A DNA stretch of 64,000 nucleotides from Candidatus Enterousia sp. (GTDB taxonomy: Bacteria > Pseudomonadota > Alphaproteobacteria > Rs-D84): positions 925 to 64,924 of the forward strand of contig JAZQGC010000038.1 in NCBI GenBank assembly GCA_045539815.1, given 5' to 3'. Of this stretch, positions 38,380-58,587 are shown in pieces (the first letter of the stretch is position 1; the number at the start of each line of letters is the position of its first letter). Below the pieces are notes generated by a model that was given only the letters and a program-made list of their open reading frames with translations, ran no database searches and was not told the DNA's origin. Made by a program: the position numbers and the translations under genes.

Positions 38380-38408
38380 TTGCAATTTCCAGTCTAAAAG
38401 ACTATAAT
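38380..38408 (+). promoter_or_regulatory. sigma70-type promoter for the tmRNA precursor
   Basis: TTGCAA-N17-TATAAT. Confidence 0.6.
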
Positions 38409-38414
38409 TAGGTC

Positions 38415-38752
38415 GCTGTGCATACAGTGATGATTCTGAATCCGTTGTGCAATAGTCATTTTGGACTGGGGGGCGGTACCCCACAGCTCCACCATTATCT
38501 GATATGATGTGGTGTCATATCTGAAAATGGGGCTGACATAGATTCGACAGATGATGAAAGACAAATTGGTTGAATCCGACATGGCGTCGTTAAAAGCCAA
38601 ATAAAAACTGAATGGCGATAGAATCGCTGCGAACGACAATGTTCGCTTTGCAATGGCTGCCTAAGATGGCGTTGAATATGGTTGGCGATTGTTGGCCGTA
38701 TTCGTTTTAGCAATTGCGGGGTCGGTCGGGTACCTGGCACCAGAAACCCGAC
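38415..38752 (+). ncRNA. ssrA: two-piece (circularly permuted) tmRNA: acceptor piece ending CCA at 38494, coding piece starting GGGGCTG at 38529
   Basis: T-arm and 3' acceptor ...GGGGGGCGGTACCCCACAGCTCCACCA lie upstream of 5' GGGGCTGACATAGATTCGACAG. GGGGCTG pairs with CAGCTCC, giving a G3:U70 pair. Tag ORF is (GCT) GCG AAC GAC AAT GTT CGC TTT GCA ATG GCT GCC TAA = (A)ANDNVRFAMAA at 38626/38629-38664. The outer ends are approximate. Confidence 0.88.
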
Positions 38753-38788
38753 ACACAATTAATTACAGTAAAGTGAAAGGAAGATAAA

Positions 38789-43268: not shown

Positions 43269-43379
43269 AAAAGATTCGCACCAGACGGTGCGTTTTTTTA
43301 TTTTTATGTTTTTATATATTTTGTACTTGCCCTGACACAGGTAAATTTTCTAACATATTCATTGAAAGAGAGGAATTCT

Positions 43380-46300
43380 ATGAACACAAAACGCGTTTTT
43401 GCCCGGATTTTAGCACCTTTGAGCCTGTTTTTCATCGCAACAAATTCGTTTGCAGGCGACTATACTAACTGCAGTGCAAAATATTATACGGGATGTTTGC
43501 CCCGTTATTATATGACATTAAACGGCGTTTATAATGGAACGGCACAAACAGGAAACTATTGTTCAGATTGCCCCAGTGATGCGGAATTCTGTCCCGGACA
43601 TACCTATGCGCCGGCATATAAGGTTACATTAAATGCAAGTGGTGGTTCTGGGGGCACGTCTGCCATATATCGCATTCAAAATGTTGGTTGGTTCAGCAGT
43701 TTGCTGAAAAACACAACAACCGAAGCAACAACCGTATCTGCAATCGGCACACAAATAACCACAATAACAAAACCAACCAAAACAGGATATACTTTTAAAG
43801 GTTTTTATGACGCGCAATCTGGCGGAACGCAAACAATAACTTCTGCAGGTGTGGTTTCAGCCAGCAATGCTTATGGTACTGCGACTTGGTATGCGCAATG
43901 GACGGCAAATACTTACACAATTAAATATAATTCTGATGGTGGTTCGTCTGTATCCGACACAACATGCACATATGGTCAAAATTGTACCGTATCCAGCACA
44001 AAACCAACAAAAACTGGTTATACCTTTAATGGATGGAAGTATGGTTCAACAACATATCAGTCGGGCGCGACTGTATCTAATCTGACCAGCACAAATGGTG
44101 GCAGTGTTACATTTACTGCACAGTGGACGGCAAATACTTACACAATCAAATATAATTCTGATGGTGGTTCGTCTGTATCCGACACAACATGCACATATGG
44201 GCAAAATTGTACCGTATCCAGTACAAAACCAACAAAAACTGGTTATACATTTGCTGGATGGAAGTATGATTCAACAACATATCAGGCGGGTGCGACCATT
44301 ACCACCAGCCTGACCAGCACAAATGGTGGCAGTGTTACATTTACCGCACAATGGACGGCAAATACATTTACGTTAAAACATGTTTCAGATGGTACTGTTG
44401 TAAGGGAAAAAACGTGTACATACGATTCTGCGTGTACGGTTACCGCCACAGTTCCAACCAAGACAGGTTATACGTTTGATGGCTGGTTATATAATGATAA
44501 AACTTATACCAGCGGACAAGATGTTAAAAATTTGGTTAACACAAATGGTACGACGGTTACATTGACCGCACAATGGACGGTGATTTCAAAGACTTGTTCA
44601 GCGGGCCAATACTTTAATGTAACAGAATGTGCGGATTGTACATCTGGGTATTATTGTCCAAACGGTTCGAAAACATACACTTATAACGGCAATATCCAGG
44701 GGCGTTATACATGTCCGGCAAATTCATCCACAAATGGAAAAACGGGTCAGGCAAGCTGTACATGTAACACGGGATATAACTATAATGGTGGCACAACCGC
44801 AACAACAAATGCATGCATGGCAAACACATATACAATTAAGTATAATACAAACGGTGGCGATGGCAGTATAGCAGACACAACATGCACATATGGACAAAAC
44901 TGTACCATATCCAGTACAAAACCAACAAAAACTGGTTATACATTTACCGGATGGCAGTATGTTTCAACAACATATCAGTCGGGCGCGACCATTGATACCA
45001 ATCTGACCAGTACAAATGGCGCAGTGCTGGAATTTGTTGCACAATGGACACCGGTTAGTTATTCAATTATATATAACTCACAATCCGGACTAAGTTTACC
45101 AAGCACAAATTGTACATATGATTCATCTTGTACAATCAATGAGACAAAACTGACCAAAACAGGATATACCTTTGCGGGTTGGAAATATGGTGACGAAACA
45201 TATCAACCAGGCGACACAGTTATTAACCTGACCAACAATGGCGGTTCGTCTGTGACACTGACAGGACAATGGACACCGATTACATTTACCGTCATATATG
45301 TATCTAATGGTGGCAGTGGTACCAGTATGGAAAACACAATATGTACATATGATACCGATTGTTATATTACCGCAAACACATATACAAGAACGGGATATAC
45401 ATTCAAGAATTGGGCGAATTCTGATAAAAGCCAGTATTTTGAAGATGGTGCAAACCTTAAAAATGCATCGTCAACACAGGGCGCAGGTCTGTTCTTGTAT
45501 GCACAATGGGAACCGATTACATATACGGTAAGATATGATGCAAATGGTGGCAGTGGCAGTATGACAGACAAACAATGTGTTTATGACACAGACTGCAAAC
45601 TGGACGCAAACACATTCACAAATACAGGACACAGTTTTGTAGGCTGGTTATACGGCGGGATAAAATATCAAGACCAAGAAACACTGCCTAATCTGACCAC
45701 AGAAAACGGTGCGGTGCTGGAATTTGTGGCACAATGGTCAAAAAATGCACGCACATGCGAAGCCGGAAAATACCTGAATGGCGACACATGCGAAACCTGC
45801 CCTGCCGACCATTACTGTACAGGTGGCGCATGGGAATACAATGGCGACAAACAAGGTTTAGAAAAATGCCCAGCGAATTCGTCCACAAATGGGAAGACGG
45901 GTCAGGCGAGTTGTACATGCAACACGGGATATAATCATAACGGTGGAACAATCGCAACAACAAATACATGCGAGGCAAACACATATACAATTAAGTATAA
46001 TACAAATGGTGGTGATGGCAGTATAGCAGACACAACATGCACATACGGTCAAAATTGTACCGTATCCAGTACAAAACCAACAAAAACTGGTTATACATTT
46101 GCTGGATGGCAGTATGGTTCAACAACATATCAGTCGGGTTCGATCATTGATACCAATCTGACCAGCACGAACGGTGCAGTACTGGAATTTGTTGCACAAT
46201 GGACACCAATCACATATACGATAAGATATGATGCAGATGGCGGTTATGGTTACATGGAAGACACAACTTGTACATATGATCAACTTTGCTATTTACGTGA

Positions 46301-48632
46301 AAACACCTATACCAAGACAGGACATCGTTTTGTTCATTGGTGGTTTATGGATTATATGGCTGGGGAATATGTTACCTATCGTCCCACACAGCAAGATGAA
46401 GTAGTTGTTGCCAAAGCATACTGGTTGCCAATTCAGATACCTTGCCCAGCAGGACAATATCTGGATGGTTTATATTGTATCGACTGCGAAGATAAATACT
46501 ATTGCGAGGGCAGCGAGGCCGAAGGTTGGTCAAATGGTTGGTCGTACGATGGCGGAATTCATGGCAGAAAAGATTGCCCAGTAACAACAGAAACATATGG
46601 GGCGGCCGAAAATCTTGGATTCCTTGATGTTTTGGCAACTGCGCCACATACGTCAATTGAGGAATGTCGTGCAACTTTTGTGTATGTGCCAGAGTGGCTA
46701 ATAAAGACACAAGACCCAAACGCGGAATTGGCTACAGAATATGATCCACAGGCGAATAATCGTGGTGTGTATTTTGTAAGTTGTGATTATAATTCAGATA
46801 CAAAACAGTATGATTCTAATTGTACGGGATTTCCACTGAGCTGTGGTGCAGGATATGTTTCTAGTACAAATGTAGATTTGGCAACAGATTTTGAAGATTT
46901 GTCAAAAAATTTGTATTATGCAAACAGTCCGCAAGATGCGATTGAAAAAACTTGTGTGCCAGTCGGACGTAATAATTGGTCACCAAGTGGACAAGAGTGT
47001 ATTGGCTTGCCAGATGATGAAGTGGTTTTTTGTCTTTATGAAAAGTCTCTAGAGAAAAACGCATGTCCGGATGGGGGTATAACACTGACGGATACCGCGG
47101 GGGCAATCACAGATTGTTTAAAGAACGATGTTGAATGCGCGACCGAATTGGGCGACGGTATCAAGACTTGTTCTTATGACGAAGCAACTGGTGGATATAA
47201 TAATTGCGGCGAATGCAGCGTTGATTCATGTAAGTCGGGATATTATATGAATAACGGTGTATGTACCACATGTCCGGCCGGTTCTGCATGTTCTGACAAC
47301 AATATTACAACATGCGGTGCAAATACTTGGTCAACAGTTGGTGGCGCACAGTGTAATGCGTGTCCGGCAAATTCGTCCACAAATGGTGCCACAGGACAAA
47401 CACAATGCGTATGTAATGATGGATATACCACAAATGGCAAATTTGATGGTCCAACCACTACAACAACGCAAGACTGTATCAGAACAGATATAAATGTTAC
47501 ATATGATGTAAATGGCGGAAATGGCGCGCTGGGTGGACACACATGTCCTGCGGGTACACAATGCACCCTGCTGACACCAGATGTTATCGGCAATCATATG
47601 TATCGTGCAGGTTATGTATTCATTGGATGGGGCGATAAAGCAAACGCAACAACCCCGGTCAATCCCGTCTTTAATACAGATGTAACACTGTACGCGATAT
47701 GGAACGCATGTGCAGCAGGCACATACAAGACAGCAGATGCAGCATTGGATGCACAATGTAGTGCGTGTCAGGTTTTGGGCGACAAACAATATAACGCAAC
47801 AAATGACGTGGCATCAACCAGCCCTGAACAATGTTTTACAACATGTGCCAATAAAAAAATAACAAATGCAACCCTGTTCCCAAAGAACACAACGGCATAT
47901 TATCCAACTGTCTGCGAATACGAAAATGGTATAACAGACAATGGCAACCCATGTAAATTTGATGGTGACACATGTAAAGAGGTCAGCTGTAAGCCAGACA
48001 ACGAAATGATTAACGGCAACTGCCAGCCATGTAATCGAGAACATGCAACCGAGTATAAAACAACCGGAAACTGCGAGGTTGCAAAATGTAGATATGGATA
48101 TCATCCAAATGGTCAGTCTTGTCAAAGCAATGTAATCGAATGTCAGATGCAAAATGCAAAGTCTGCATCGCAAAAGTGGGATGAACAGACCGGCGCATAT
48201 GGCGTATGCACAATCACAGAATGTGAACCAGGCTTCCATATCGTTGCAAATGCATGCCAACCAGATGAACAAACATGCGAACTGGAACACGGTATCGGAT
48301 GGCGCGAATGGGATGACAAGAAAAATGATTGGGGCAAGTGTATCGCAACACAGTGTGAACCAGGATACACAAACGACCCAGACCTGACAAACGAGTCATG
48401 GGAACAATGTGGACGCTGTAACAATATGTATGGCGCACACGGTGAACGCGTTGTCAGTAGCTATGTCCGGGAATGCGAAATTGCATCTTGTATGTATCAG
48501 GGCGAACACTTTATATTGGAAAATAACGAGTGTCGCGACATATGCGAAACATACAGCGACGAAACCGGCAGTCGCAAATGGAACGGCAACAAGTGCGTAC
48601 ATACATGTAACGAAGGTTACACAAACTGGTAA
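43380..48632 (+). CDS. giant exported protein with Listeria-Bacteroides (InlB-B/Flg_new-type) repeats and eukaryote-like Cys-rich modules
   Basis: ATG 43380 after AGAGAGGA. Signal peptide MNTKRVFARILAPLSLFFIATNSFA. At least 10 copies of Y-x-(I/V)-x-Y...C-x-Y...TK(P)TKTGYTF-x-GW repeats, interspersed with C-x-AG-x-Y...C-x-x-C-x-x-x-(Y/H)YC modules and a C-terminal W/C-rich region. Confidence 0.88.
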   Translation: MNTKRVFARILAPLSLFFIATNSFAGDYTNCSAKYYTGCLPRYYMTLNGVYNGTAQTGNYCSDCPSDAEFCPGHTYAPAYKVTLNASGGSGGTSAIYRIQNVGWFSSLLKNTTTEATTVSAIGTQITTITKPTKTGYTFKGFYDAQSGGTQTITSAGVVSASNAYGTATWYAQWTANTYTIKYNSDGGSSVSDTTCTYGQNCTVSSTKPTKTGYTFNGWKYGSTTYQSGATVSNLTSTNGGSVTFTAQWTANTYTIKYNSDGGSSVSDTTCTYGQNCTVSSTKPTKTGYTFAGWKYDSTTYQAGATITTSLTSTNGGSVTFTAQWTANTFTLKHVSDGTVVREKTCTYDSACTVTATVPTKTGYTFDGWLYNDKTYTSGQDVKNLVNTNGTTVTLTAQWTVISKTCSAGQYFNVTECADCTSGYYCPNGSKTYTYNGNIQGRYTCPANSSTNGKTGQASCTCNTGYNYNGGTTATTNACMANTYTIKYNTNGGDGSIADTTCTYGQNCTISSTKPTKTGYTFTGWQYVSTTYQSGATIDTNLTSTNGAVLEFVAQWTPVSYSIIYNSQSGLSLPSTNCTYDSSCTINETKLTKTGYTFAGWKYGDETYQPGDTVINLTNNGGSSVTLTGQWTPITFTVIYVSNGGSGTSMENTICTYDTDCYITANTYTRTGYTFKNWANSDKSQYFEDGANLKNASSTQGAGLFLYAQWEPITYTVRYDANGGSGSMTDKQCVYDTDCKLDANTFTNTGHSFVGWLYGGIKYQDQETLPNLTTENGAVLEFVAQWSKNARTCEAGKYLNGDTCETCPADHYCTGGAWEYNGDKQGLEKCPANSSTNGKTGQASCTCNTGYNHNGGTIATTNTCEANTYTIKYNTNGGDGSIADTTCTYGQNCTVSSTKPTKTGYTFAGWQYGSTTYQSGSIIDTNLTSTNGAVLEFVAQWTPITYTIRYDADGGYGYMEDTTCTYDQLCYLRENTYTKTGHRFVHWWFMDYMAGEYVTYRPTQQDEVVVAKAYWLPIQIPCPAGQYLDGLYCIDCEDKYYCEGSEAEGWSNGWSYDGGIHGRKDCPVTTETYGAAENLGFLDVLATAPHTSIEECRATFVYVPEWLIKTQDPNAELATEYDPQANNRGVYFVSCDYNSDTKQYDSNCTGFPLSCGAGYVSSTNVDLATDFEDLSKNLYYANSPQDAIEKTCVPVGRNNWSPSGQECIGLPDDEVVFCLYEKSLEKNACPDGGITLTDTAGAITDCLKNDVECATELGDGIKTCSYDEATGGYNNCGECSVDSCKSGYYMNNGVCTTCPAGSACSDNNITTCGANTWSTVGGAQCNACPANSSTNGATGQTQCVCNDGYTTNGKFDGPTTTTTQDCIRTDINVTYDVNGGNGALGGHTCPAGTQCTLLTPDVIGNHMYRAGYVFIGWGDKANATTPVNPVFNTDVTLYAIWNACAAGTYKTADAALDAQCSACQVLGDKQYNATNDVASTSPEQCFTTCANKKITNATLFPKNTTAYYPTVCEYENGITDNGNPCKFDGDTCKEVSCKPDNEMINGNCQPCNREHATEYKTTGNCEVAKCRYGYHPNGQSCQSNVIECQMQNAKSASQKWDEQTGAYGVCTITECEPGFHIVANACQPDEQTCELEHGIGWREWDDKKNDWGKCIATQCEPGYTNDPDLTNESWEQCGRCNNMYGAHGERVVSSYVRECEIASCMYQGEHFILENNECRDICETYSDETGSRKWNGNKCVHTCNEGYTNW
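43899..44351 (+). repeat. two tandem near-identical coding repeats (225 and 228 bp)
   Basis: TGGACGGCAAATACTTACACAAT(T/C)AAATATAATTCTGATGGTGGTTCGTCTGTATCCGACACAACATGCACATATGG... restarts at 44124. The next, more divergent unit starts at 44352. Confidence 0.9.
44715..46207 (+). repeat. dispersed intragenic duplication of about 338 bp (44715-45052 and 45869-46207)
   Basis: Both copies encode PANSSTNGKTGQASCTCNTGYN-x-NGGT-x-ATTN-x-C-x-ANTYTIKYNTNGGDGSIADTTCTYGQNCT-x-SSTKPTKTGYTF-x-GWQY...TNLTSTNGAVLEFVAQWTP with few nucleotide differences. Confidence 0.85.
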
Positions 48633-52137: not shown

Positions 52138-52776
52138 CTATAAGCAAACAATTCTGTCTATGTTGATGTTTTTAGCAAACATCGCGTCATGAGACACCAA
52201 TAGAATCGCACCACGATATTGATTCAGCGCTTCTTCTAGTATTGATATGCTTTTGATATCCAAATTGTTTGTTGGTTCATCCAGAATCAGTAAATCTGGT
52301 TGCTGGGGGCTGCCTAATATCGTTGCCAATGTTGCCTTTAGTAATTCGCCACCCGATAACTGTCCCGCTTTCTTTTTGGATGCATCACCACGAAAACCAA
52401 AGTTTGCTGCGATTGTGTGAGCATCATGTTTTAACACACCGGATATTGACATAATGTTTTCAACAACCGTCTTGTCGCAATCCAGCAGCGATAAATCCTG
52501 ATCCAAATACACTATGCGACCACGGGTTTTTATATCACCCGACTGCGGATATAATTTGCCACAAATTATTTTTAATAGGGTTGATTTTCCTGCTCCATTT
52601 TTTCCAGTCAGCCGAACACGTGTTGCACCATACATAGAAAAATCAAAATTGCTAAAAATCTGCCTATCTGCGTATGCGAAATACAACGAAGAAATTTTTA
52701 TCAGTTCTTTGCTGTAAAAGGCCTTGGACGGCAATGGAATCTTTATCATATCATCACGCATTTGACCAGATAACAT
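52138..52776 (-). pseudogene. ABC-F-type ATPase, single (C-terminal) ABC domain only; probable 5'-truncated remnant
   Basis: 212 aa with GKNGAGKSTLLK, LSGGELLK, LLILDEPTNNLD and VSHD. ABC-F proteins normally carry two such domains plus a linker. The 5' end abuts another truncated gene. Confidence 0.6.
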
Positions 52777-53198
52777 TTGTCGTTGCTGAATTTGGCAAAG
52801 ATTTTGCCGTTATGTCTGATCAAGAACGAGTTGAGTTTTATAAGGATAAAATCAAGCCATCTGGAACCTTTATTTCTGTGTATCAACCAGCAATTGCAGC
52901 CCCACTAGCTAAAATAGATCCAAAAACAAATCTAGGACTTGATGCAGAAATAGTGTATAATGGCAAAGGAATTGCACATATATACGTTTGCGAAAACAAT
53001 TATGAGAAGTTAGTAACGATCTTCAAAACTCAAGATAAAACCCAACAAAAATGGGATAAGGATTTTTTATTAAAAGCCAAAGCTGGACTTCCTTCAACTG
53101 TTGGTGTTGCGATTGGCCTGGATAGAACCATAGCGGGTTTATTCGGTGTCACTGTAAACGACTTAGTTATCAGAGGCAAATTATCAAATGAACGATGA
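52734..53198 (+). pseudogene. class II (subclass IIb, LysRS/EpmA-like) aminoacyl-tRNA-synthetase C-terminal fragment
   Basis: Contains FISVYQPAIAAPLAK and motif 3 GLPSTVGVAIGLDRTIAGLFG, but no motif 1 or 2. At most 174 codons are open (from 52674). The stop overlaps the next ORF's start by 11 nt. Confidence 0.6.
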
Positions 53199-54273
53199 GA
53201 TAAAAACCATAGAATTTCTAAAAACGGGTTTGTCTTTACAAACCCATATTGGTTGCCCAATAAAATGTTCTTATTGTGTGGTCACTGGCTTTTATGATGA
53301 TATGGCAAAAAGCCAACAACTAGTAGATACGAACACCCTAATAAACAACCTAATAACACATGAGTTTTTTTATGACGATGTTATTTTGATGGTAAATAAC
53401 AAAACAGAAGGATTTCAACCAAAGGTTGAAAAATATACGTTTGACATTCTGGACAAACTGAAGAATTACGGAATAAAAAATCCAAAAATATTGATAACGA
53501 AACTTCCAATACCACTCAGATATACAGACTCTTTGACTGACAACAATGTTTTTGTTTTTACAACATATTCCGGAATGCCATCCACGATAGAACCAACATC
53601 AACCCCGACAAACCTATCTAATATTGTAAACAATATTAAGGTGTTAAGGCAGCATTCTGACGCAAGACATGTACATTATTGGCGTCCTATTGTTAGAAAT
53701 ATAAATAGCGATTCTGATATCATTAATAATATATTAGACAATGTGAATGGTGTATTTGATTGCTCTGTTATATCTGGCATACGTTTAACACCTGTTATAA
53801 AACAACATTTAGAAAGTCGTGGGGCAGATTTTTATGATTGGAATGGTGATATTAATCATAAATTTTTACCTGAGGATATTTATAATCAAATTATACAATC
53901 AAAGAATGCATTATGTCCTGAATATAAATTATTTACAAAGACCAGTTGTTCTATCAGTCATTTGTTGAATAATTTTGACGCAAATTTAAATTTTGTAAAA
54001 CGAAATTATTCTTGCTCTGTTCAATGCCCAAACGGATCGATATGCAAATCATACCAACCGCGATACACGGACAAAGAACGAGAAATACTAAAAAAATTCA
54101 ATTTATTGGATTGTGCAAATTTTATAGACGGTGTTTTATATATAAACAAACCAATTTCCCAAGAGCTAAAAGCATTTCTTATACAAACAATAAAATTAAG
54201 AATAATTGTTCCAGAAACACTAAAATCTCATACCGAAGGTATTTTCAATGCACGAAATGGGCGTTCTTTGTGA
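53188..54273 (+). CDS. radical SAM protein (COG1533/SplB-like by eye), unknown function
   Basis: CX3CX2C at residues 23-30 (GCPIKCSYC) and a C-terminal Cys cluster CSISH...CSVQCPNGSIC. Very AT-rich. Confidence 0.7.
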   Translation: MNDEIKTIEFLKTGLSLQTHIGCPIKCSYCVVTGFYDDMAKSQQLVDTNTLINNLITHEFFYDDVILMVNNKTEGFQPKVEKYTFDILDKLKNYGIKNPKILITKLPIPLRYTDSLTDNNVFVFTTYSGMPSTIEPTSTPTNLSNIVNNIKVLRQHSDARHVHYWRPIVRNINSDSDIINNILDNVNGVFDCSVISGIRLTPVIKQHLESRGADFYDWNGDINHKFLPEDIYNQIIQSKNALCPEYKLFTKTSCSISHLLNNFDANLNFVKRNYSCSVQCPNGSICKSYQPRYTDKEREILKKFNLLDCANFIDGVLYINKPISQELKAFLIQTIKLRIIVPETLKSHTEGIFNARNGRSL

Positions 54274-54778
54274 TTTTCATGGCACTTTAGTAGATGCCAA
54301 CAAAGCATGGATAAAAGCTTTTGAAACATATGACATCCCTGATATAAATCAGGTAATTACGGATGTATATCATAAAGTAAATCGAAAGATAATATGTCGC
54401 AGGTATGGTATAGATTATGAAGAAATAAAAAATAAATACACATCTTTTCTAGAAATTCGTTATGAAATTGTAAATCTTGTTAAATTATTAAGCAATAATA
54501 CAGGAATTATAATCGTTTCAAATTCTAGCAGGGAACGCTTACTCAAGGACATAAATTTTGTTAAAGCAAATTTAAACTTGGAGATACGGGAAATATTGTC
54601 TAAAGACAATGGTAACAAAAACGATCCTGATTATATAAACCAAGTACTAGATAGATACAATTATAAGTCTGCATATTTAATAGGGAACGATATCAGGGAA
54701 GATTTTAATCCATCACCACGTATAACAAATATATTCGTTCCCTATAAAAATACAATACTTATGAACAAGACCTTATAA
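54248..54778 (+). CDS. HAD-superfamily-like protein with atypical motif I
   Basis: Motif I LCDFHGTLVD (second Asp replaced by His), motif II IIVSNSS, motif IV LIGNDIRED. The start overlaps the radical SAM ORF by 26 nt. Confidence 0.6.
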   Translation: MHEMGVLCDFHGTLVDANKAWIKAFETYDIPDINQVITDVYHKVNRKIICRRYGIDYEEIKNKYTSFLEIRYEIVNLVKLLSNNTGIIIVSNSSRERLLKDINFVKANLNLEIREILSKDNGNKNDPDYINQVLDRYNYKSAYLIGNDIREDFNPSPRITNIFVPYKNTILMNKTL

Positions 54779-55735
54779 CGATATTTTTATCGTATTCTTT
54801 TCTGTGTCGATACTTGCTCTGCCACCAATAGGAAATACAAAATATGGCATCGTGTGTCCAAAATCTAATCCTGTTATAACTGGTATTTGGCCTAATTTAA
54901 CATGGTCGTTGAAAAAATTTCGTAATCTATCACTAGTAAAATCAGAATTATTTCTAAACCTACCTATAACAACGCCCTTAATTTTATCAAAATTTGATTG
55001 TTGCGACAACGAAGCAAAATTCCGTTTGAATAAATCGATACTCATGCCGTCATCTTCTAGAAACAGTATTTTATCTGTTAAATCTGGCATATACTGTGTC
55101 CCGAACAATAAGGGCAATGTCCCAATATTGCCGCCAACAATAACTCCTTCCGCATATCCAGACCGTAGAACTTCACGACCGGGATTGTTCATAAAATGTC
55201 TATCCTCCTGATTCTTATGCCATTTATCATCACTCCAATCCTCAGAATCTACGACATCAAACTCAAATTGCTTATATTTTACGATATTAATGAACGCTTT
55301 TTCTATGTAATCAAATCCCTGTTTCATAGCGAAATGACTGAAGCAAGGACCATACAAGTTTATTAAATTCGATTTTTTAAACAAAGCATCCTGTAGTGCT
55401 GTGATATCGGAAAAACCACAAAAGATTTTCTGATTGTTTTTTATCAGTTCATAATCAATATAAGGCAGCAACTCATTAGAATTTGCACCGCCAAACGCTG
55501 CCATAACTAAATCGACATTTGGGTCGGTAAAAGCATCATGTAAATCTGCGACTCTACTTTGTACACTTGATGAACCAAACTCATCTCGTTCAAAAGCATG
55601 CTGTCCAAACGAAACATTAAACCCCAATGCGTTCAGTCTTTTTTCCGCTAATTCTCTATTAGATTCTGCCAGGTTTGCCAGACTTGCAGCTGGAGCGATC
55701 ACGCGTATATTTATTATTTTTTTATCGAAAATCAT
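54773..55735 (-). CDS. S66 LD-carboxypeptidase family protein (MccF/LdcA-like)
   Basis: IRVIAPAASL, nucleophile motif GFSDITAL, C-terminal DFGHTMPYFVFPIGG. ATG 55735; the ORF track extends to 55774. Confidence 0.8.
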   Translation of the reverse strand: MIFDKKIINIRVIAPAASLANLAESNRELAEKRLNALGFNVSFGQHAFERDEFGSSSVQSRVADLHDAFTDPNVDLVMAAFGGANSNELLPYIDYELIKNNQKIFCGFSDITALQDALFKKSNLINLYGPCFSHFAMKQGFDYIEKAFINIVKYKQFEFDVVDSEDWSDDKWHKNQEDRHFMNNPGREVLRSGYAEGVIVGGNIGTLPLLFGTQYMPDLTDKILFLEDDGMSIDLFKRNFASLSQQSNFDKIKGVVIGRFRNNSDFTSDRLRNFFNDHVKLGQIPVITGLDFGHTMPYFVFPIGGRASIDTEKNTIKISL

Positions 55736-55858: not shown

Positions 55859-56296
55859 ATGGCGAAAATAGAACTTCCAACAACACTGGATGCTCTGCGA
55901 GCAATGCCGTTTGCAGATCGTGCGACTCTTTGGGCTAAATACAGCCCACCCCCATTCAAACGACAAATGCGGGCATTGTGGTACTATATTCAATGCGACC
56001 GCTTCAAACTGCGGATTGAACCAAAGTTCCTGACCAAGATAAAGAAATACAAAGACAATCCCACAGAATGTGTCACCCATGCGTATCATAATCGGTACTA
56101 TATCCGTCCCGGCACGGTTATAACACGAACATTCCGCGGAATCGAACATTGTGTCACAACAAATGACGATGGAACGTTTTGTTACAACGGACAAACCTAC
56201 AGAACGTTGTCTGGAATTGCGAAAGAGATTTCCGGCATAAAGATTTCAGGCCCAAAGTTCTTTGGACTAAATAAAGGGGGCAACAATGCCAAATAG
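55859..56296 (+). CDS. DUF2924-family protein (recombinase-associated)
   Basis: Strong RBS GAAGGAGG. RALWYYIQC ... YRTLSGIAKEISGIKISGPKFFGL matches the DUF2924 pattern. It overlaps the recombinase start by 11 nt. Confidence 0.7.
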   Translation: MAKIELPTTLDALRAMPFADRATLWAKYSPPPFKRQMRALWYYIQCDRFKLRIEPKFLTKIKKYKDNPTECVTHAYHNRYYIRPGTVITRTFRGIEHCVTTNDDGTFCYNGQTYRTLSGIAKEISGIKISGPKFFGLNKGGNNAK

Positions 56297-57890
56297 ATGT
56301 GCGATTTATACGCGTAAGTCAACCGAGCATGGGTTGGATATGGAATTTAACTCCCTGCAGAACCAAGAAGATGCATGCAAGGCATATATTGCATCCCAAT
56401 CATTCAACGGGTGGCAATATTGTAAAACATACAGCGATGCGGCAATATCTGGTGGAACTATGGAACGACCCGCATTAAAACAAATGTTGGACGATATGGC
56501 ACATGGGTTGGTCAATACTGTGGTGGTTTATAAGGTTGACAGGTTATCACGTTCCATATTGGATTTTCATAAGATGATGCAGTATTTCAACAAGTATAAT
56601 GCGAACTTTGTGTCCATAACCCAATCGTTTGACACCAGTACATCTATGGGTAAATTGACGCTGAATATGCTGCTGTCATTTGCCCAGTTTGAACGCGAAG
56701 TTTCCAGCGAACGAGTACGGGATAAAATACGCGCCAGTAAAGCCAAAGGTATATGGATGGGCGGCAATCCGCCGTTGGGTTATGATGTGATAAATAAAAA
56801 ATTGATTCCGAATGAGGCTGAGGCCGCGACTGTTCGGACACTCTTTGAAAAGTATCTAGAACTACAATCTGTAAATGCGCTGACCGAATATGCAGCGGCA
56901 CATAGTATATTTGCAAAACAATGGACGACCGCCAAAGGCGTCACAAAGGGCGGCCGACCCATTGCCAAAATGAGCATGCATCGATTATTGCGTGACAGGA
57001 TTTATATCGGCCAAATTGTGAACAAGACGAATAATACTATTGCCCCGGGCGAGCATCAGATGATATTACCCACAGAACTGTTTAAACGTGTACAAGTGGC
57101 CTTGCAAAACAACGCGAATAACAAGTCTGAAACACACGGTTCACCCAATTTGTTGACCGGCAAACTGTTTAATCACAACGGCGTGCGCTTTACCAATCAG
57201 CGGACTTGTGGCAAAGGCAAAACCAACACCCATTATTATGCAACCCGTGGCTTTTATCTGCCCGCACCCCAGGTGGACGATATCGTCATAAAAACTATAA
57301 CAGATTTTCTGAACAGCGATATGTCAAATCTACCTCCCAACTTAACCACCACATTAAAACGCATAGATATAACAAATATGAACTTCGCAGAAAAGCGCAA
57401 TTTGATTCAATCACTGGTTGAAAAGATTGTGTATTCACAAAACCAATTGATTTATACATTGACCACTGACACAACCAAATTACAACCATTTATGACGGAA
57501 AATTATGTAAATCAAAACTCAGATAAAATGGAATACATAATTGGTAATAACAACATAACAATTACCGAAAAAGTATTTCTACGAAAACACGTTAACACAG
57601 TATACGATCATGGCAAAAATGGTGTATTAAACGTCTCTGATAATAATCATTTAATACTCAAAGCTTTTGCCACTGCATGGCGGTACAAAGAGTTATACGA
57701 ACGATGTGGCGATGTTGATTTAGTGGCAAAAGAATATCACGTTTCGCCCATGACGGTATATAGATATTTCAACTTAGCATACATGATGCCTGATAAGGTC
57801 AATAATATTCTATCTGGGAAAACAGCTTGTAGTGTAACTAGCATTCTGAACCAAAGAAATCATCATGATGTTTTTCCAACAGTTTCATAG
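56286..57890 (+). CDS. large serine recombinase (resolvase/invertase N-domain plus recombinase and zinc-ribbon-type extension)
   Basis: CAIYTRKSTEHG...SLQNQ (catalytic Ser), VVVYKVDRLSRS, SFAQFEREVSSERVRDK, GGNPPLGY; 534 aa. Confidence 0.9.
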   Translation: MPNRCAIYTRKSTEHGLDMEFNSLQNQEDACKAYIASQSFNGWQYCKTYSDAAISGGTMERPALKQMLDDMAHGLVNTVVVYKVDRLSRSILDFHKMMQYFNKYNANFVSITQSFDTSTSMGKLTLNMLLSFAQFEREVSSERVRDKIRASKAKGIWMGGNPPLGYDVINKKLIPNEAEAATVRTLFEKYLELQSVNALTEYAAAHSIFAKQWTTAKGVTKGGRPIAKMSMHRLLRDRIYIGQIVNKTNNTIAPGEHQMILPTELFKRVQVALQNNANNKSETHGSPNLLTGKLFNHNGVRFTNQRTCGKGKTNTHYYATRGFYLPAPQVDDIVIKTITDFLNSDMSNLPPNLTTTLKRIDITNMNFAEKRNLIQSLVEKIVYSQNQLIYTLTTDTTKLQPFMTENYVNQNSDKMEYIIGNNNITITEKVFLRKHVNTVYDHGKNGVLNVSDNNHLILKAFATAWRYKELYERCGDVDLVAKEYHVSPMTVYRYFNLAYMMPDKVNNILSGKTACSVTSILNQRNHHDVFPTVS

Positions 57891-58305
57891 CGATTCTTGT
57901 AATTATTACAGGAATTCCTTCTGTTGTATTTACAAAATACTCGCCTGCAGGGATTTTTAGAATCCCTTTATTTTGCATTCCACGTGCAATTGCTAGTCGT
58001 TCATACCCAATATGGGTTGTATCAGAATAATTTGTTACATATGCTTCAAATAGTAATTCTTGTTCTTGAGGAGACAAATTATGTAAGGATTCTAATACAT
58101 ATTTTGCAGCTATTTTATATTTGATATATTTTAGTAATACTTTAATTATCCATTGTACAATAGCGGCCAAACCAATGGCCACCATAATCGCCGCACCTAA
58201 ATACTTTTCTAGATTGTAGTATTCTATAATAATCCAGGCCACTCCAACACATATGTATTGAAATGGGTTTTTTATCTGCGATATAAAAGCCGTTATAACA
58301 TCCAT
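57838..58305 (-). CDS. SieB-like (superinfection exclusion B family) membrane protein
   Basis: Two N-terminal TM segments, then LESLHNLSPQEQELLFEAYVTN...GILKI, matching the L-x-x-Lt-x-eE-x-x-L-x-x-y pattern of PF14163-type proteins as I recall it. Confidence 0.5.
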   Translation of the reverse strand: MDVITAFISQIKNPFQYICVGVAWIIIEYYNLEKYLGAAIMVAIGLAAIVQWIIKVLLKYIKYKIAAKYVLESLHNLSPQEQELLFEAYVTNYSDTTHIGYERLAIARGMQNKGILKIPAGEYFVNTTEGIPVIITRIAMKLLEKHHDDFFGSEC

Positions 58306-58496: not shown

Positions 58497-58587
58497 TGGC
58501 GGAGACGAAGGGATTCGAACCCTTGATACCCTTGCGAGTATACCACATTTCCAATGTGGCGCACTAGACCAACTATGCGACGTCTCC
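58497..58587 (-). tRNA. tRNA-Ser (anticodon GGA), CCA encoded
   Basis: The reverse complement gives acceptor GGAGACG/CGTCTCC, anticodon arm CCACA-TTGGAAA-TGTGG, a long variable arm and T-loop GGTTCGAATCC. It lies 11 nt downstream of rpoZ. Confidence 0.95.

Follow-up and report, generated by a model that had tools for sequence, protein, structure and literature searches.

A mobile operon joining a miniaturised lysyl-tRNA synthetase and two radical SAM enzymes to MccF- or MccG-type peptidases, and its truncated prophage copy in Candidatus Enterousia

Mobile microcin C (mcc) clusters gain, lose and exchange immunity genes (PMC9239234). The immunity peptidase MccF, of family S66, acts on processed microcin C by hydrolysing the carboxamide bond of the aminoacyl-nucleotide, whereas LdcA gives no protection (PMC8323819), and peptidases of family S51 (MccG) were found by Yagmurov et al. 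(2022) to detoxify processed microcin C likewise (PMC9239234). Some mcc clusters carry genes for aminoacyl-tRNA synthetases (aaRS), and resistant aaRS copies, e.g., AgnB2, are present in some clusters for aaRS inhibitors (PMC8323819). Here we describe a gene cassette that shares several of these components, and which came to light in a 64,000 nt stretch of DNA from a Candidatus Enterousia contig (JAZQGC010000038.1, positions 925 to 64,924; hereafter the window, with positions counted from its first letter). In intact copies the recurring operon order is a first radical S-adenosylmethionine (SAM) enzyme (rSAM1, about 400 aa), an aaRS-like protein (353–360 aa; 390 aa in locus L011), a second radical SAM enzyme (rSAM2) and a HAD-fold protein, accompanied by a peptidase of family S66 or S51. 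The four cassette genes of the window are the right-hand part of this conserved, horizontally mobile operon. Loci elsewhere are cited by number (L001 onwards), with coordinates where needed.

Like the mcc clusters, the cassette is borne on mobile elements, has an MccF-type (S66) or MccG-type (S51) peptidase and may include SAM-dependent tailoring enzymes, and the aaRS genes found in some of its variants recall those that provide immunity in some mcc clusters (PMC8323819, PMC9239234). The differences lie on the biosynthetic side. A ThiF-like MccB was not found among the cassette genes of the window and L001–L034 (Pfam, NCBIfam), and no MFS or ABC exporter in the role of MccC lies in or beside the cassette at any locus; the ABC-F fragment in the window is of the soluble translation-factor type, unrelated to export. 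No precursor peptide was recognised, although no systematic search for small open reading frames (ORFs) was made, and the genes of L001, L008 and L011 are spaced without a conserved gap that could hold an mccA-type precursor. The route would be derived from an aaRS and two radical SAM enzymes, and would not be that of a ribosomally synthesised and post-translationally modified peptide (RiPP). The ligase appears to be of lysine type, while that of mcc is of Asp/Asn type. Only the immunity component is homologous.

Three other systems invite comparison. In the β-lysylation of EF-P by EpmA and EpmB (PoxA/YjeK), a truncated paralog of lysyl-tRNA synthetase (LysRS) is paired with a radical SAM enzyme, as here, but EpmA has no OB domain, EpmB is a pyridoxal phosphate-dependent lysine 2,3-aminomutase unrelated to rSAM1 and rSAM2, and the pair forms a chromosomal housekeeping system, whereas the cassette is prophage cargo that also carries HAD and peptidase genes. 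The pathways to puromycin, ascamycin, blasticidin S and albomycin use a NUDIX enzyme (Pur7), a HAD-like enzyme (Pur3), methyltransferases, and either amino-acid ligases or enzymes that resemble aaRS; such aminoacyl-nucleoside antibiotic pathways also include radical SAM enzymes (BlsE/BlsG, AbmM/AbmJ), a hydrolase or peptidase for the aminoacyl bond, and resistant aaRS copies. No sequence homology of these enzymes to the cassette was found beyond the superfamily level, and those antibiotics come from large actinomycete clusters with exporters, in contrast to a cassette of 5–7 genes in gut Alphaproteobacteria, Clostridia and a Woesearchaeota metagenome-assembled genome (MAG). Finally, the prokaryotic viperins (pVips) and related nucleotide-modifying defence systems offer a radical SAM enzyme that, as is probable here, acts on a nucleotide, a location in mobile elements or defence islands, phosphatase or kinase partners, and similarity at the level of fold; rSAM2 has no sequence-level relation to viperin, however, and viperin systems lack an aaRS-like ligase or peptidase. 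Seen against these systems, the cassette would be of the mobile biosynthesis-plus-immunity kind, with a new biosynthetic logic.

The interpretation we prefer, with a probability of roughly 45%, is that the intact operon provides biosynthesis of, and self-immunity to, an aminoacyl-nucleotide-type antimetabolite. A function of this sort had been proposed when the window was first annotated from its sequence; the replacement of S66 by S51 in other lineages now lends it independent support, while the product and its role are still postulated.

The suggestion that the window held an undescribed cassette on a mobile element was borne out: the cassette is mobile, recurrent and apparently undescribed. 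The same gene set was found in about 12 distinct arrangements, which come from prophages and islands of Candidatus Enterousia, from further Alphaproteobacteria, from Clostridia, from a Woesearchaeota MAG and from metagenome contigs that are not binned. These contexts were collected by genome scan, metagenome scan and exact-protein look-ups, and mapped by tblastn and blastp. Radical SAM, HAD and S66 genes recur together in other genomes, a point that the initial annotation had named as a check, but its functional unit of three ORFs plus the peptidase was too small: intact copies add a class-B-like radical SAM gene (rSAM1) and the full 356 aa aaRS-like enzyme. The Enterousia loci have the core operon with a convergent S66 gene. 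In a Rickettsiales MAG (L001) the S66 gene lies within the operon, and in uncultured Alphaproteobacteria (L008, L016) it is accompanied by a SAM methyltransferase gene at the head. A JGI metagenome contig (L002) carries a convergent S51 gene instead, and the clostridial locus (L011) codes for a helix-turn-helix protein, an HD + TGS (RelA/SpoT-like) protein, the aaRS-like protein, rSAM1, rSAM2, HAD, S51 and a NUDIX protein. Two Logan contigs (L033, L034) add a methyltransferase, a 588 aa AlaRS-like gene and S51. In a metagenome locus (L019) the aaRS-like gene is followed by that for a bona fide 539 aa LysRS (468 bits), then rSAM2, HAD and a methyltransferase. The Woesearchaeota MAG (L010) has a histidine phosphatase, S51, rSAM1, rSAM2 and a protein of about 420 aa without fold assignment, a protein that also replaces the aaRS-like gene in two metagenome contigs (L003, L018). 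On metagenome contig ERZ779869 (L022), an N-terminally truncated rSAM2 gene, HAD and S51 lie beside a tyrosine integrase gene. Optional additions across the variants are a phosphatase of the NUDIX or histidine kind, a SAM methyltransferase, and either a complete LysRS or a near-complete alanyl-tRNA synthetase (AlaRS).

Identities among the loci span 30% to 99%, which rules out a single clonal contaminant. In comparisons between Enterousia species, the ratio of nonsynonymous to synonymous substitution rates (dN/dS) was 0.06 for rSAM2 (against L006), 0.11 for HAD and 0.08 for S66, and because of these low values we regard all three as working genes under strong constraint, as judged from sequence. 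The families are rare, with 6 clusters for rSAM2 and 10 for the aaRS-like protein at 90% identity in a word-indexed search of 5.8 billion proteins. A scan of IMG/VR viral contigs with the rSAM2 profile returned zero relatives, although the Enterousia copies are clearly prophage-borne, PHROGs gave no informative match for the cassette, and literature searches did not uncover a description of the gene combination.

The strongest single argument for a product in which an amino acid is joined to a nucleotide, with the peptidase as its antidote, is the alternation of S66 and S51, which was seen across at least seven independent cassette arrangements. An S66 gene is present in the window and in L001, L004–L008, L016 and L027–L044, and an S51 gene in L002, L010, L011, L022, L033 and L034. 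The S66 gene of the window (54773–55735, minus strand) is intact and convergent with the operon; its product matches both Pfam domains of the family (PF02016 at 1.6e-32, PF17676 at 7.7e-28) and shows the motifs of the Ser-His-Glu triad (GFSDITAL, FLEDDG and DFGHT). It had been assigned to the MccF type on sight, with LdcA-type murein recycling as the mundane alternative, and the assignment holds: in a phmmer search of the PDB the MccF-like proteins Lmo1638 and BA_5613 matched at 1e-92 and MccF at 1e-43, compared with 1e-18 to 1e-22 for LdcA, and the LdcA equivalog model (NF008424) gave 110.8 bits against a cut-off of 378. The enzyme, a member of the MccF-like clade, is presumed from these relationships to confer immunity as an antidote.

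The intact aaRS-like protein is a miniaturised LysRS (mini-LysRS) of 356 aa, comprising a short OB domain and a class IIb catalytic core. The best Pfam and NCBIfam matches of both the window remnant and an intact homolog are LysRS and EpmA (class II D/K/N aaRS). The first 66 or so residues of the intact protein align with the OB domain of LysRS, an AlphaFold2 (AF2) model has a confident N-terminal five-strand OB barrel, and the top 50 Foldseek matches of this model are all full-length LysRS, at about 1e-21. The arginines of motifs 2 and 3 do not vary, and neither do the acidic residues that line up with Glu240, Glu278 and Glu428 of LysRS, which hold the lysine there (residue roles as in LysU). 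Motif 2 is altered in two places (FRNEG to FRNMG, and HNPEF to KYATEY). Shortened OB domain and motifs 1–3 are all present, yet the intact homolog reaches only 77 bits with the class IIb LysRS equivalog (cut-off 427.6) and 72.3 bits with that of EpmA (NF006828; cut-off 264), and no EpmB-like gene was found with the cassette. The initial annotation had seen a LysRS/EpmA-like motif 3 region in the window, of which the LysRS relationship stands, but an EpmA-type identity does not, given the OB domain and the missed EpmA cut-off. In L003 (1667–2932), L010 (4307–5563) and L018 (1187–2431) the mini-LysRS gene is replaced by that for the protein of about 420 aa, for which there was no Pfam, NCBIfam or PDB match and which forms a single cluster in the 5.8-billion-protein database. 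A divergent aaRS was considered for this substitute but gained no support (hhalign probability 0.2, no PDB or Pfam match).

The rSAM2 gene of the window (53188–54273, plus strand) is intact and codes for 361 aa. Its CxxxCxxC motif (CPIKCSYC, residues 23–30) and its C-terminal cysteine cluster (CSVQCPNGSIC) had been noted from the outset and were confirmed in an alignment of homologs, in which C23, C27 and C30 are invariant and a four-Cys motif (C254 and C-x2-5-C-x5-C) is conserved near the C-terminus. From the latter motif, a second (auxiliary) Fe-S cluster is likely. The protein had no Pfam match and its sequence matched nothing in the PDB, but an AF2 model (pLDDT 67.7) matched PFL-AE, viperin, SkfB and RlmN with Foldseek probabilities of 0.96–1.0 and TM scores of only 0.3–0.5, matches that are to generic radical SAM folds and allow no subfamily assignment. 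The assignment of rSAM2 to the radical SAM enzymes is based on the invariant CxxxCxxC together with the fold match to PFL-activase and viperin; its family is uncharacterised and has no Pfam model. A full hidden Markov model scan of 1.84 billion representatives placed 559 in the family, 100 of them at 1e-30 or better. Distant members match PF04055 and the model of the PA0069 family with scores that are under or close to the cut-offs, and paralogs of about 25% identity have weak matches to the PA0069-family and DUF1848 models. Domains of this family are also fused to TIR_2, nucleoside 2-deoxyribosyltransferase, DUF4062 + HD, or TCAD9 with an APH-type kinase, in large proteins such as L024:2459–5896, L025:8648–12079, P0057, P0076 and P0089; these seem to be undescribed conflict-system-like architectures, and they point to nucleotide substrates and conflict systems. 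By comparison, rSAM1 matches PF04055, and its best, weak matches are to class-B, B12-type enzymes (ApyD, HpnJ, AprD4 and PhpK).

The HAD-fold protein (54248–54778, plus strand; intact, 176 aa) matches Pfam HAD_2 at 2e-6 (28.5 bits, cut-off 23.8) and TIGR01549 (HAD-IA). Canonical phosphatases of this fold have D-x-D-x-T as motif I, with the second Asp as general acid/base, but here motif I is D-F-H-G-T: the nucleophile Asp is kept and the general acid is replaced by His. This departure, remarked upon in the initial annotation, proved to be conserved, as all homologs read have D-x-H-(G/N)-T. The identical HAD protein occurs in at least 72 index blocks, and the intact operon was found at all ten of the ten places listed.

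In the mechanism we propose, the mini-LysRS would activate a lysine-like amino acid with ATP, and the aminoacyl group would either stay on, or be passed to, a nucleotide or nucleoside. Remodelling and dephosphorylation of the aminoacyl-nucleotide, or of its nucleotide acceptor, would fall to the pair of radical SAM enzymes, the optional methyltransferase and the HAD, NUDIX or histidine phosphatase, yielding a stable, toxic aminoacyl-nucleotide or aminoacyl-nucleoside that would mimic an aminoacyl-adenylate, or the 3' end of an aminoacyl-tRNA, and so poison translation. The carrier cell would be shielded by the S66 or S51 peptidase, which would cut the amide or ester bond of the aminoacyl-nucleotide, and the benefit to a lysogen would be a weapon or an addiction module. 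A nucleotide is implicated by the HAD, NUDIX, His-phosphatase and HD + TGS neighbours and by the nucleotide-domain fusions of the rSAM2 family. The embedded LysRS (539 aa; L019:815–2434) and AlaRS (588 aa; L033:5123–6889 and L034:4954–6720), the latter without C-Ala but with catalytic and editing domains, may be resistant target copies or extra ligases. As a possible alternative means of self-resistance they would fit the logic of the resistant aaRS copies in aaRS-inhibitor clusters (PMC8323819).

Several points weigh against this interpretation. Every chemical step of the pathway is inferred. The lost motif 2 residues bind ATP in LysRS, so the chemistry of the mini-LysRS may differ from that of LysRS, and its OB domain could mean that the substrate is a tRNA and not a free nucleotide. 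The activity of MccF and MccG is known for aspartyl (and Glu/Ser) nucleotides, but the ligase here appears to be of lysine type. The embedded aaRS differ in type (LysRS or AlaRS), which is a misfit with a single target, and in three loci the mini-LysRS is replaced by the unrelated protein of about 420 aa. No exporter or uptake gene (Trojan-horse peptide or siderophore) accompanies the cassette, an uncommon state of affairs for an antibiotic that is secreted, and prophage lysis as a means of release is speculative.

Taken further, it is conceivable, though less likely than not, that the cassette makes a toxic aminoacyl-nucleotide or aminoacyl-nucleoside, a translation poison neutralised by MccF- or MccG-type peptidases, by a non-ribosomal route derived from an aaRS, the first of its kind. 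Carried by prophages and islands of gut bacteria and archaea, it would serve them in attack, in addiction or in abortive infection. If true, such a natural product or immune effector would form a class of its own, and the widespread stand-alone MccF and MccG homologs would gain a natural substrate. A non-RiPP pathway that recruits both peptidase families would also suggest that toxic aminoacyl-nucleotides play a broader part in microbial conflict than microcin C. The rSAM2 family has no characterised member, and its chemistry could reveal new nucleotide radical reactions. With 5–7 genes, the operon is small enough to be tested directly by heterologous expression.

The main rival explanation retains the chemistry but changes its purpose: an anti-phage or abortive-infection module, in which the radical SAM enzymes and the mini-LysRS would, upon infection, turn a cellular nucleotide into a chain-terminating, translation-blocking or signalling aminoacyl-nucleotide, with the peptidase and phosphatases as off-switch or antidote. 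The cassette always lies in the accessory cargo of prophages and islands, and in other Enterousia elements it is placed near defence genes. In these elements (L006:2060–7291, L027:1–8171, L028:3331–8450) the block of cassette and recombinase is joined to cargo such as DUF4747, ApeA-like and PD-(D/E)XK genes with two DNA methylase genes, NOV_C with a BsobI-type restriction-modification system, and Fic, DUF488, glycosyltransferase and reverse transcriptase-like genes with a 5'-3' exonuclease gene. This association holds for only part of the loci, however. The fusions of rSAM2-family domains to TIR_2, Nuc_deoxyrib_tr, DUF4062 + HD and TCAD9 + kinase are typical of conflict systems, but they are found in paralogs of about 25% identity and not in the cassette enzyme itself. 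The lack of an exporter also speaks for this rival, and the fold of rSAM2 resembles that of viperin, among other radical SAM enzymes; the viperins are also a precedent for a chemistry that would otherwise seem slow and oxygen-sensitive for a response to infection. The initial annotation had offered a nucleotide-modifying defence cassette as its second option, and this fared poorly in a search of PADLOC-DB v2, where rSAM2, HAD, S66 and mini-LysRS had no match and rSAM1 had a single weak one, to a candidate family (PDC-M51A, 3e-6). Nor is there a conserved sensor or regulator gene in the cassette. On balance, we consider a defence module unlikely.

Modification of a macromolecule is improbable. 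A lysine modified by the radical SAM enzymes might be charged onto a tRNA, an EF-P-like factor or a cell-wall precursor, or the cassette might hypermodify the DNA of its own prophage. The OB domain of the mini-LysRS is homologous to an anticodon-binding domain, and a TGS-domain protein neighbours the cassette in L011, but no dedicated tRNA gene is present in 17 loci. EpmA and EpmB set a precedent for a LysRS paralog paired with a radical SAM enzyme; against this, the EpmA and LysRS equivalog cut-offs are widely missed, and neither radical SAM enzyme is of the lysine aminomutase type. For DNA, the ParB-methylase gene beside the cassette in the prophage is suggestive, but DNA transglycosylase, hmdU pathway and aminoacyl-DNA transferase genes are absent, and in L001 and L008 the cassette is found away from prophages. 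LdcA, itself an S66 enzyme, does cleave Lys/DAP-D-Ala bonds, yet the alternation of S66 and S51 fits aminoacyl-nucleotide hydrolases and not any modification pathway.

A chance adjacency of unrelated housekeeping or decaying genes (LdcA for the recycling of murein, a phosphatase and a radical SAM enzyme of generic kinds, and a pseudogene of an aaRS) would suit the pseudogene fragment and truncated operon of the window and the commonness of the S66 and HAD families, but is effectively excluded by the recurrence of the set in about 12 arrangements across distant lineages and by purifying selection (dN/dS 0.06–0.11), and sits badly with the failed LdcA equivalog test, the grouping of the peptidase with MccF-like proteins and the rarity of rSAM2 and mini-LysRS (6 and 10 clusters at 90% identity).

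The copy of the operon in the window is incomplete. The ORF coordinates, overlaps, motifs and low G+C content given in the initial annotation were all reproduced (ORF map, G+C profile): ORF 52674–53198 (plus strand) overlaps ORF 53188–54273 (plus) by 11 nt, the latter overlaps ORF 54248–54778 (plus) by 26 nt, and the S66 gene (minus strand), which runs to 55735 from an ATG or to 55774 from an upstream TTG, meets the HAD stop codon in a 6 nt tail-to-tail overlap. The translations contain GLPSTVGVAIGLDRT and the rSAM2, HAD and S66 motifs given above, including CPIKCSYC, CSVQCPNGSIC, DFHGT, GFSDITAL and DFGHT, and the block is AT-rich relative to its surroundings, with a G+C fraction of 0.30–0.34 across 53000–55000 and 0.40–0.45 in the flanks. 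The reading of three co-directional overlapping ORFs stands as regards the overlaps, but the first of them is not one gene. It is chimeric: only the part from 52783 is derived from the aaRS gene, the codons 5' of this position are antisense to a fragment of an ABC-F ATPase gene, and the ORF start (52674 or 52736) lies in this foreign sequence.

The aaRS-like gene had been suspected of being a dead fragment, and it is one, the OB domain and motifs 1 and 2 having been removed by deletion. The remnant (52783–53198, plus strand) covers approximately residues 222–356 of 356, as seen by tblastn, Pfam and alignments; it matches Pfam tRNA-synt_2 at 1e-10 over profile positions 157–295 only, has 70% identity to residues 221–355 of the L002 protein (tblastn), and keeps only motif 3 (GLDR). 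Homology to all intact cassettes begins exactly at 52783 (blastn). In the sibling strains L045 and L046, a gene for arginyl-tRNA synthetase (ArgRS) is followed by an intact ABC-F gene of 462 aa, and homology of these strains to the window extends to 52795. In a three-way alignment the window equals L045 on the left and L035 on the right, and the 13 bases between (52783–52795, TTGCTGAATTTGG) are identical in both parents, being a repeat common to the intact ABC-F and mini-LysRS genes. The junction is thus a microhomology-mediated deletion that fused the 3' half of the ABC-F gene to codon ~222 of the mini-LysRS gene. Lost were the 5' half of the ABC-F gene, the intervening DNA, the body of the prophage, rSAM1 and about 221 mini-LysRS codons (OB, motifs 1 and 2). 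No trace of rSAM1 or of the missing half of the LysRS turned up elsewhere in the window (tblastn). Chimeric assembly at the junction is unlikely because the 13 bp repeat is shorter than assembler k-mers. Exact-sequence look-ups gave no record for the ArgRS, the ABC-F fragment, the chimeric ORF or the rSAM2 of the window, and no second sample with the junction came to light.

The remaining ABC-F fragment (52138–52782, minus strand) comprises 212 of 462 codons, is chromosomal and lies outside the cassette. It matches only positions 306–495 of the 499 in the NCBIfam ABC-F model. The second ABC domain remains, and the strain has in effect lost a chromosomal ABC-F gene (the intact sibling gene is L045:4997–6385). 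The possibility that it was a resistance gene of the cassette was considered and rejected: sibling strains have this chromosomal gene intact, and here the deletion has simply cut it.

With rSAM1 and the full mini-LysRS deleted, the window copy cannot run the pathway, and its biosynthetic arm would be dead. The rSAM2, HAD and S66 genes are free of stop codons and frameshifts. Their synonymous divergence (dS) from the intact copy in L004 is about 0.03, and window-derived amino acid changes number two in rSAM2, none in HAD and two in S66, which means that the loss was recent, or that the genes are still useful. The rSAM2 and HAD genes are probably orphaned. Promoter-like sites in the window are at background level, except for a good match upstream of the S66 gene (55793–55765), and terminator-like sites number nine, about twice the mean of shuffled sequences (4.6 ± 2.2), with none informative. 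The peptidase, intact and with a promoter-like site of its own, may still give immunity, making the strain a non-producing immune 'cheater'. The window provides a well-resolved example of prophage decay that has left an immunity gene and two orphan biosynthetic genes; this decay lowers the value of the locus, but not that of the cassette family to which it led.

The proposal that the cassette lay on a mobile element was correct, the carriers in Candidatus Enterousia being serine-recombinase prophages and islands. Contigs of the same species preserve the element more fully. On the left they have genes for Terminase_6C, DUF5681 and a ParB/N6_N4-methylase (all leftward), then rSAM1, mini-LysRS, rSAM2 and HAD; after HAD come S66 (leftward), DUF2924, a large serine recombinase, one variable gene, rpoZ and a MiaB-like gene, and this right flank is the window's own. 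Because of this shared flank, the window cassette, too, can be recognised as cargo of a prophage integrated beside a tRNA-Ser(GGA) gene, as is the Enterousia cassette in these contigs. To the right of the S66 gene in the window lie genes for a DUF2924 protein (55859–56296, plus strand; PF11149, 1.4e-20), which adjoins the recombinase in every Enterousia locus, the large serine recombinase (56286–57890, plus; Pfam Resolvase and Recombinase, with CcrB/XisF-like matches), a 155 aa membrane protein (57838–58305, minus; Pfam SieB, a superinfection exclusion family, at 2e-3, below the cut-off) and tRNA-Ser(GGA) (58497–58587, minus; ARAGORN). An integrase with Resolvase and Recombinase domains beside tRNA-Ser, together with phage genes in the same-species contigs, identifies a large-serine-recombinase element, of which the tRNA gene is the probable right-hand border and integration site. 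A search for att-site repeats gave nothing convincing. In other Enterousia species the element ends at tRNA-Ser(TGA), and other islands lie beside tRNA-Lys or tRNA-Glu. In 17 loci the cassette never contains a tRNA gene, those present marking island borders, and a pyl-like genetic-code expansion (aaRS, amino-acid biosynthesis and tRNA) was rejected on this count.

The slot between the recombinase and the attachment site is a variable cargo slot. The SieB-like gene of 155 aa is also present there in L035, L037 and L039, while in the sibling prophages L036, L040 and L041 the same slot holds unrelated genes (118, 264 + 138 or 385 aa). Decaying copies were also encountered outside the window: the rSAM2 gene of L022 (2367–3272) is without its N-terminal cluster motif, the S66 gene of L042 (6526–7480) is broken into pieces of 252 and 83 aa, and the prophage ParB-methylase gene of L036 (1164–2458) is broken in two. 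Away from the cassette, the window has a permuted (two-piece) tmRNA gene (38401–38755) with the tag AANDNVRFAMAA, as expected in an alphaproteobacterium, and a gene for a 1756 aa Cys-rich secreted protein (43362–48632) with many copies of a repeat of about 75 residues ('TGYTF...GW'). In L038 there is a 1534 aa gene with a faint match to Flg_new.

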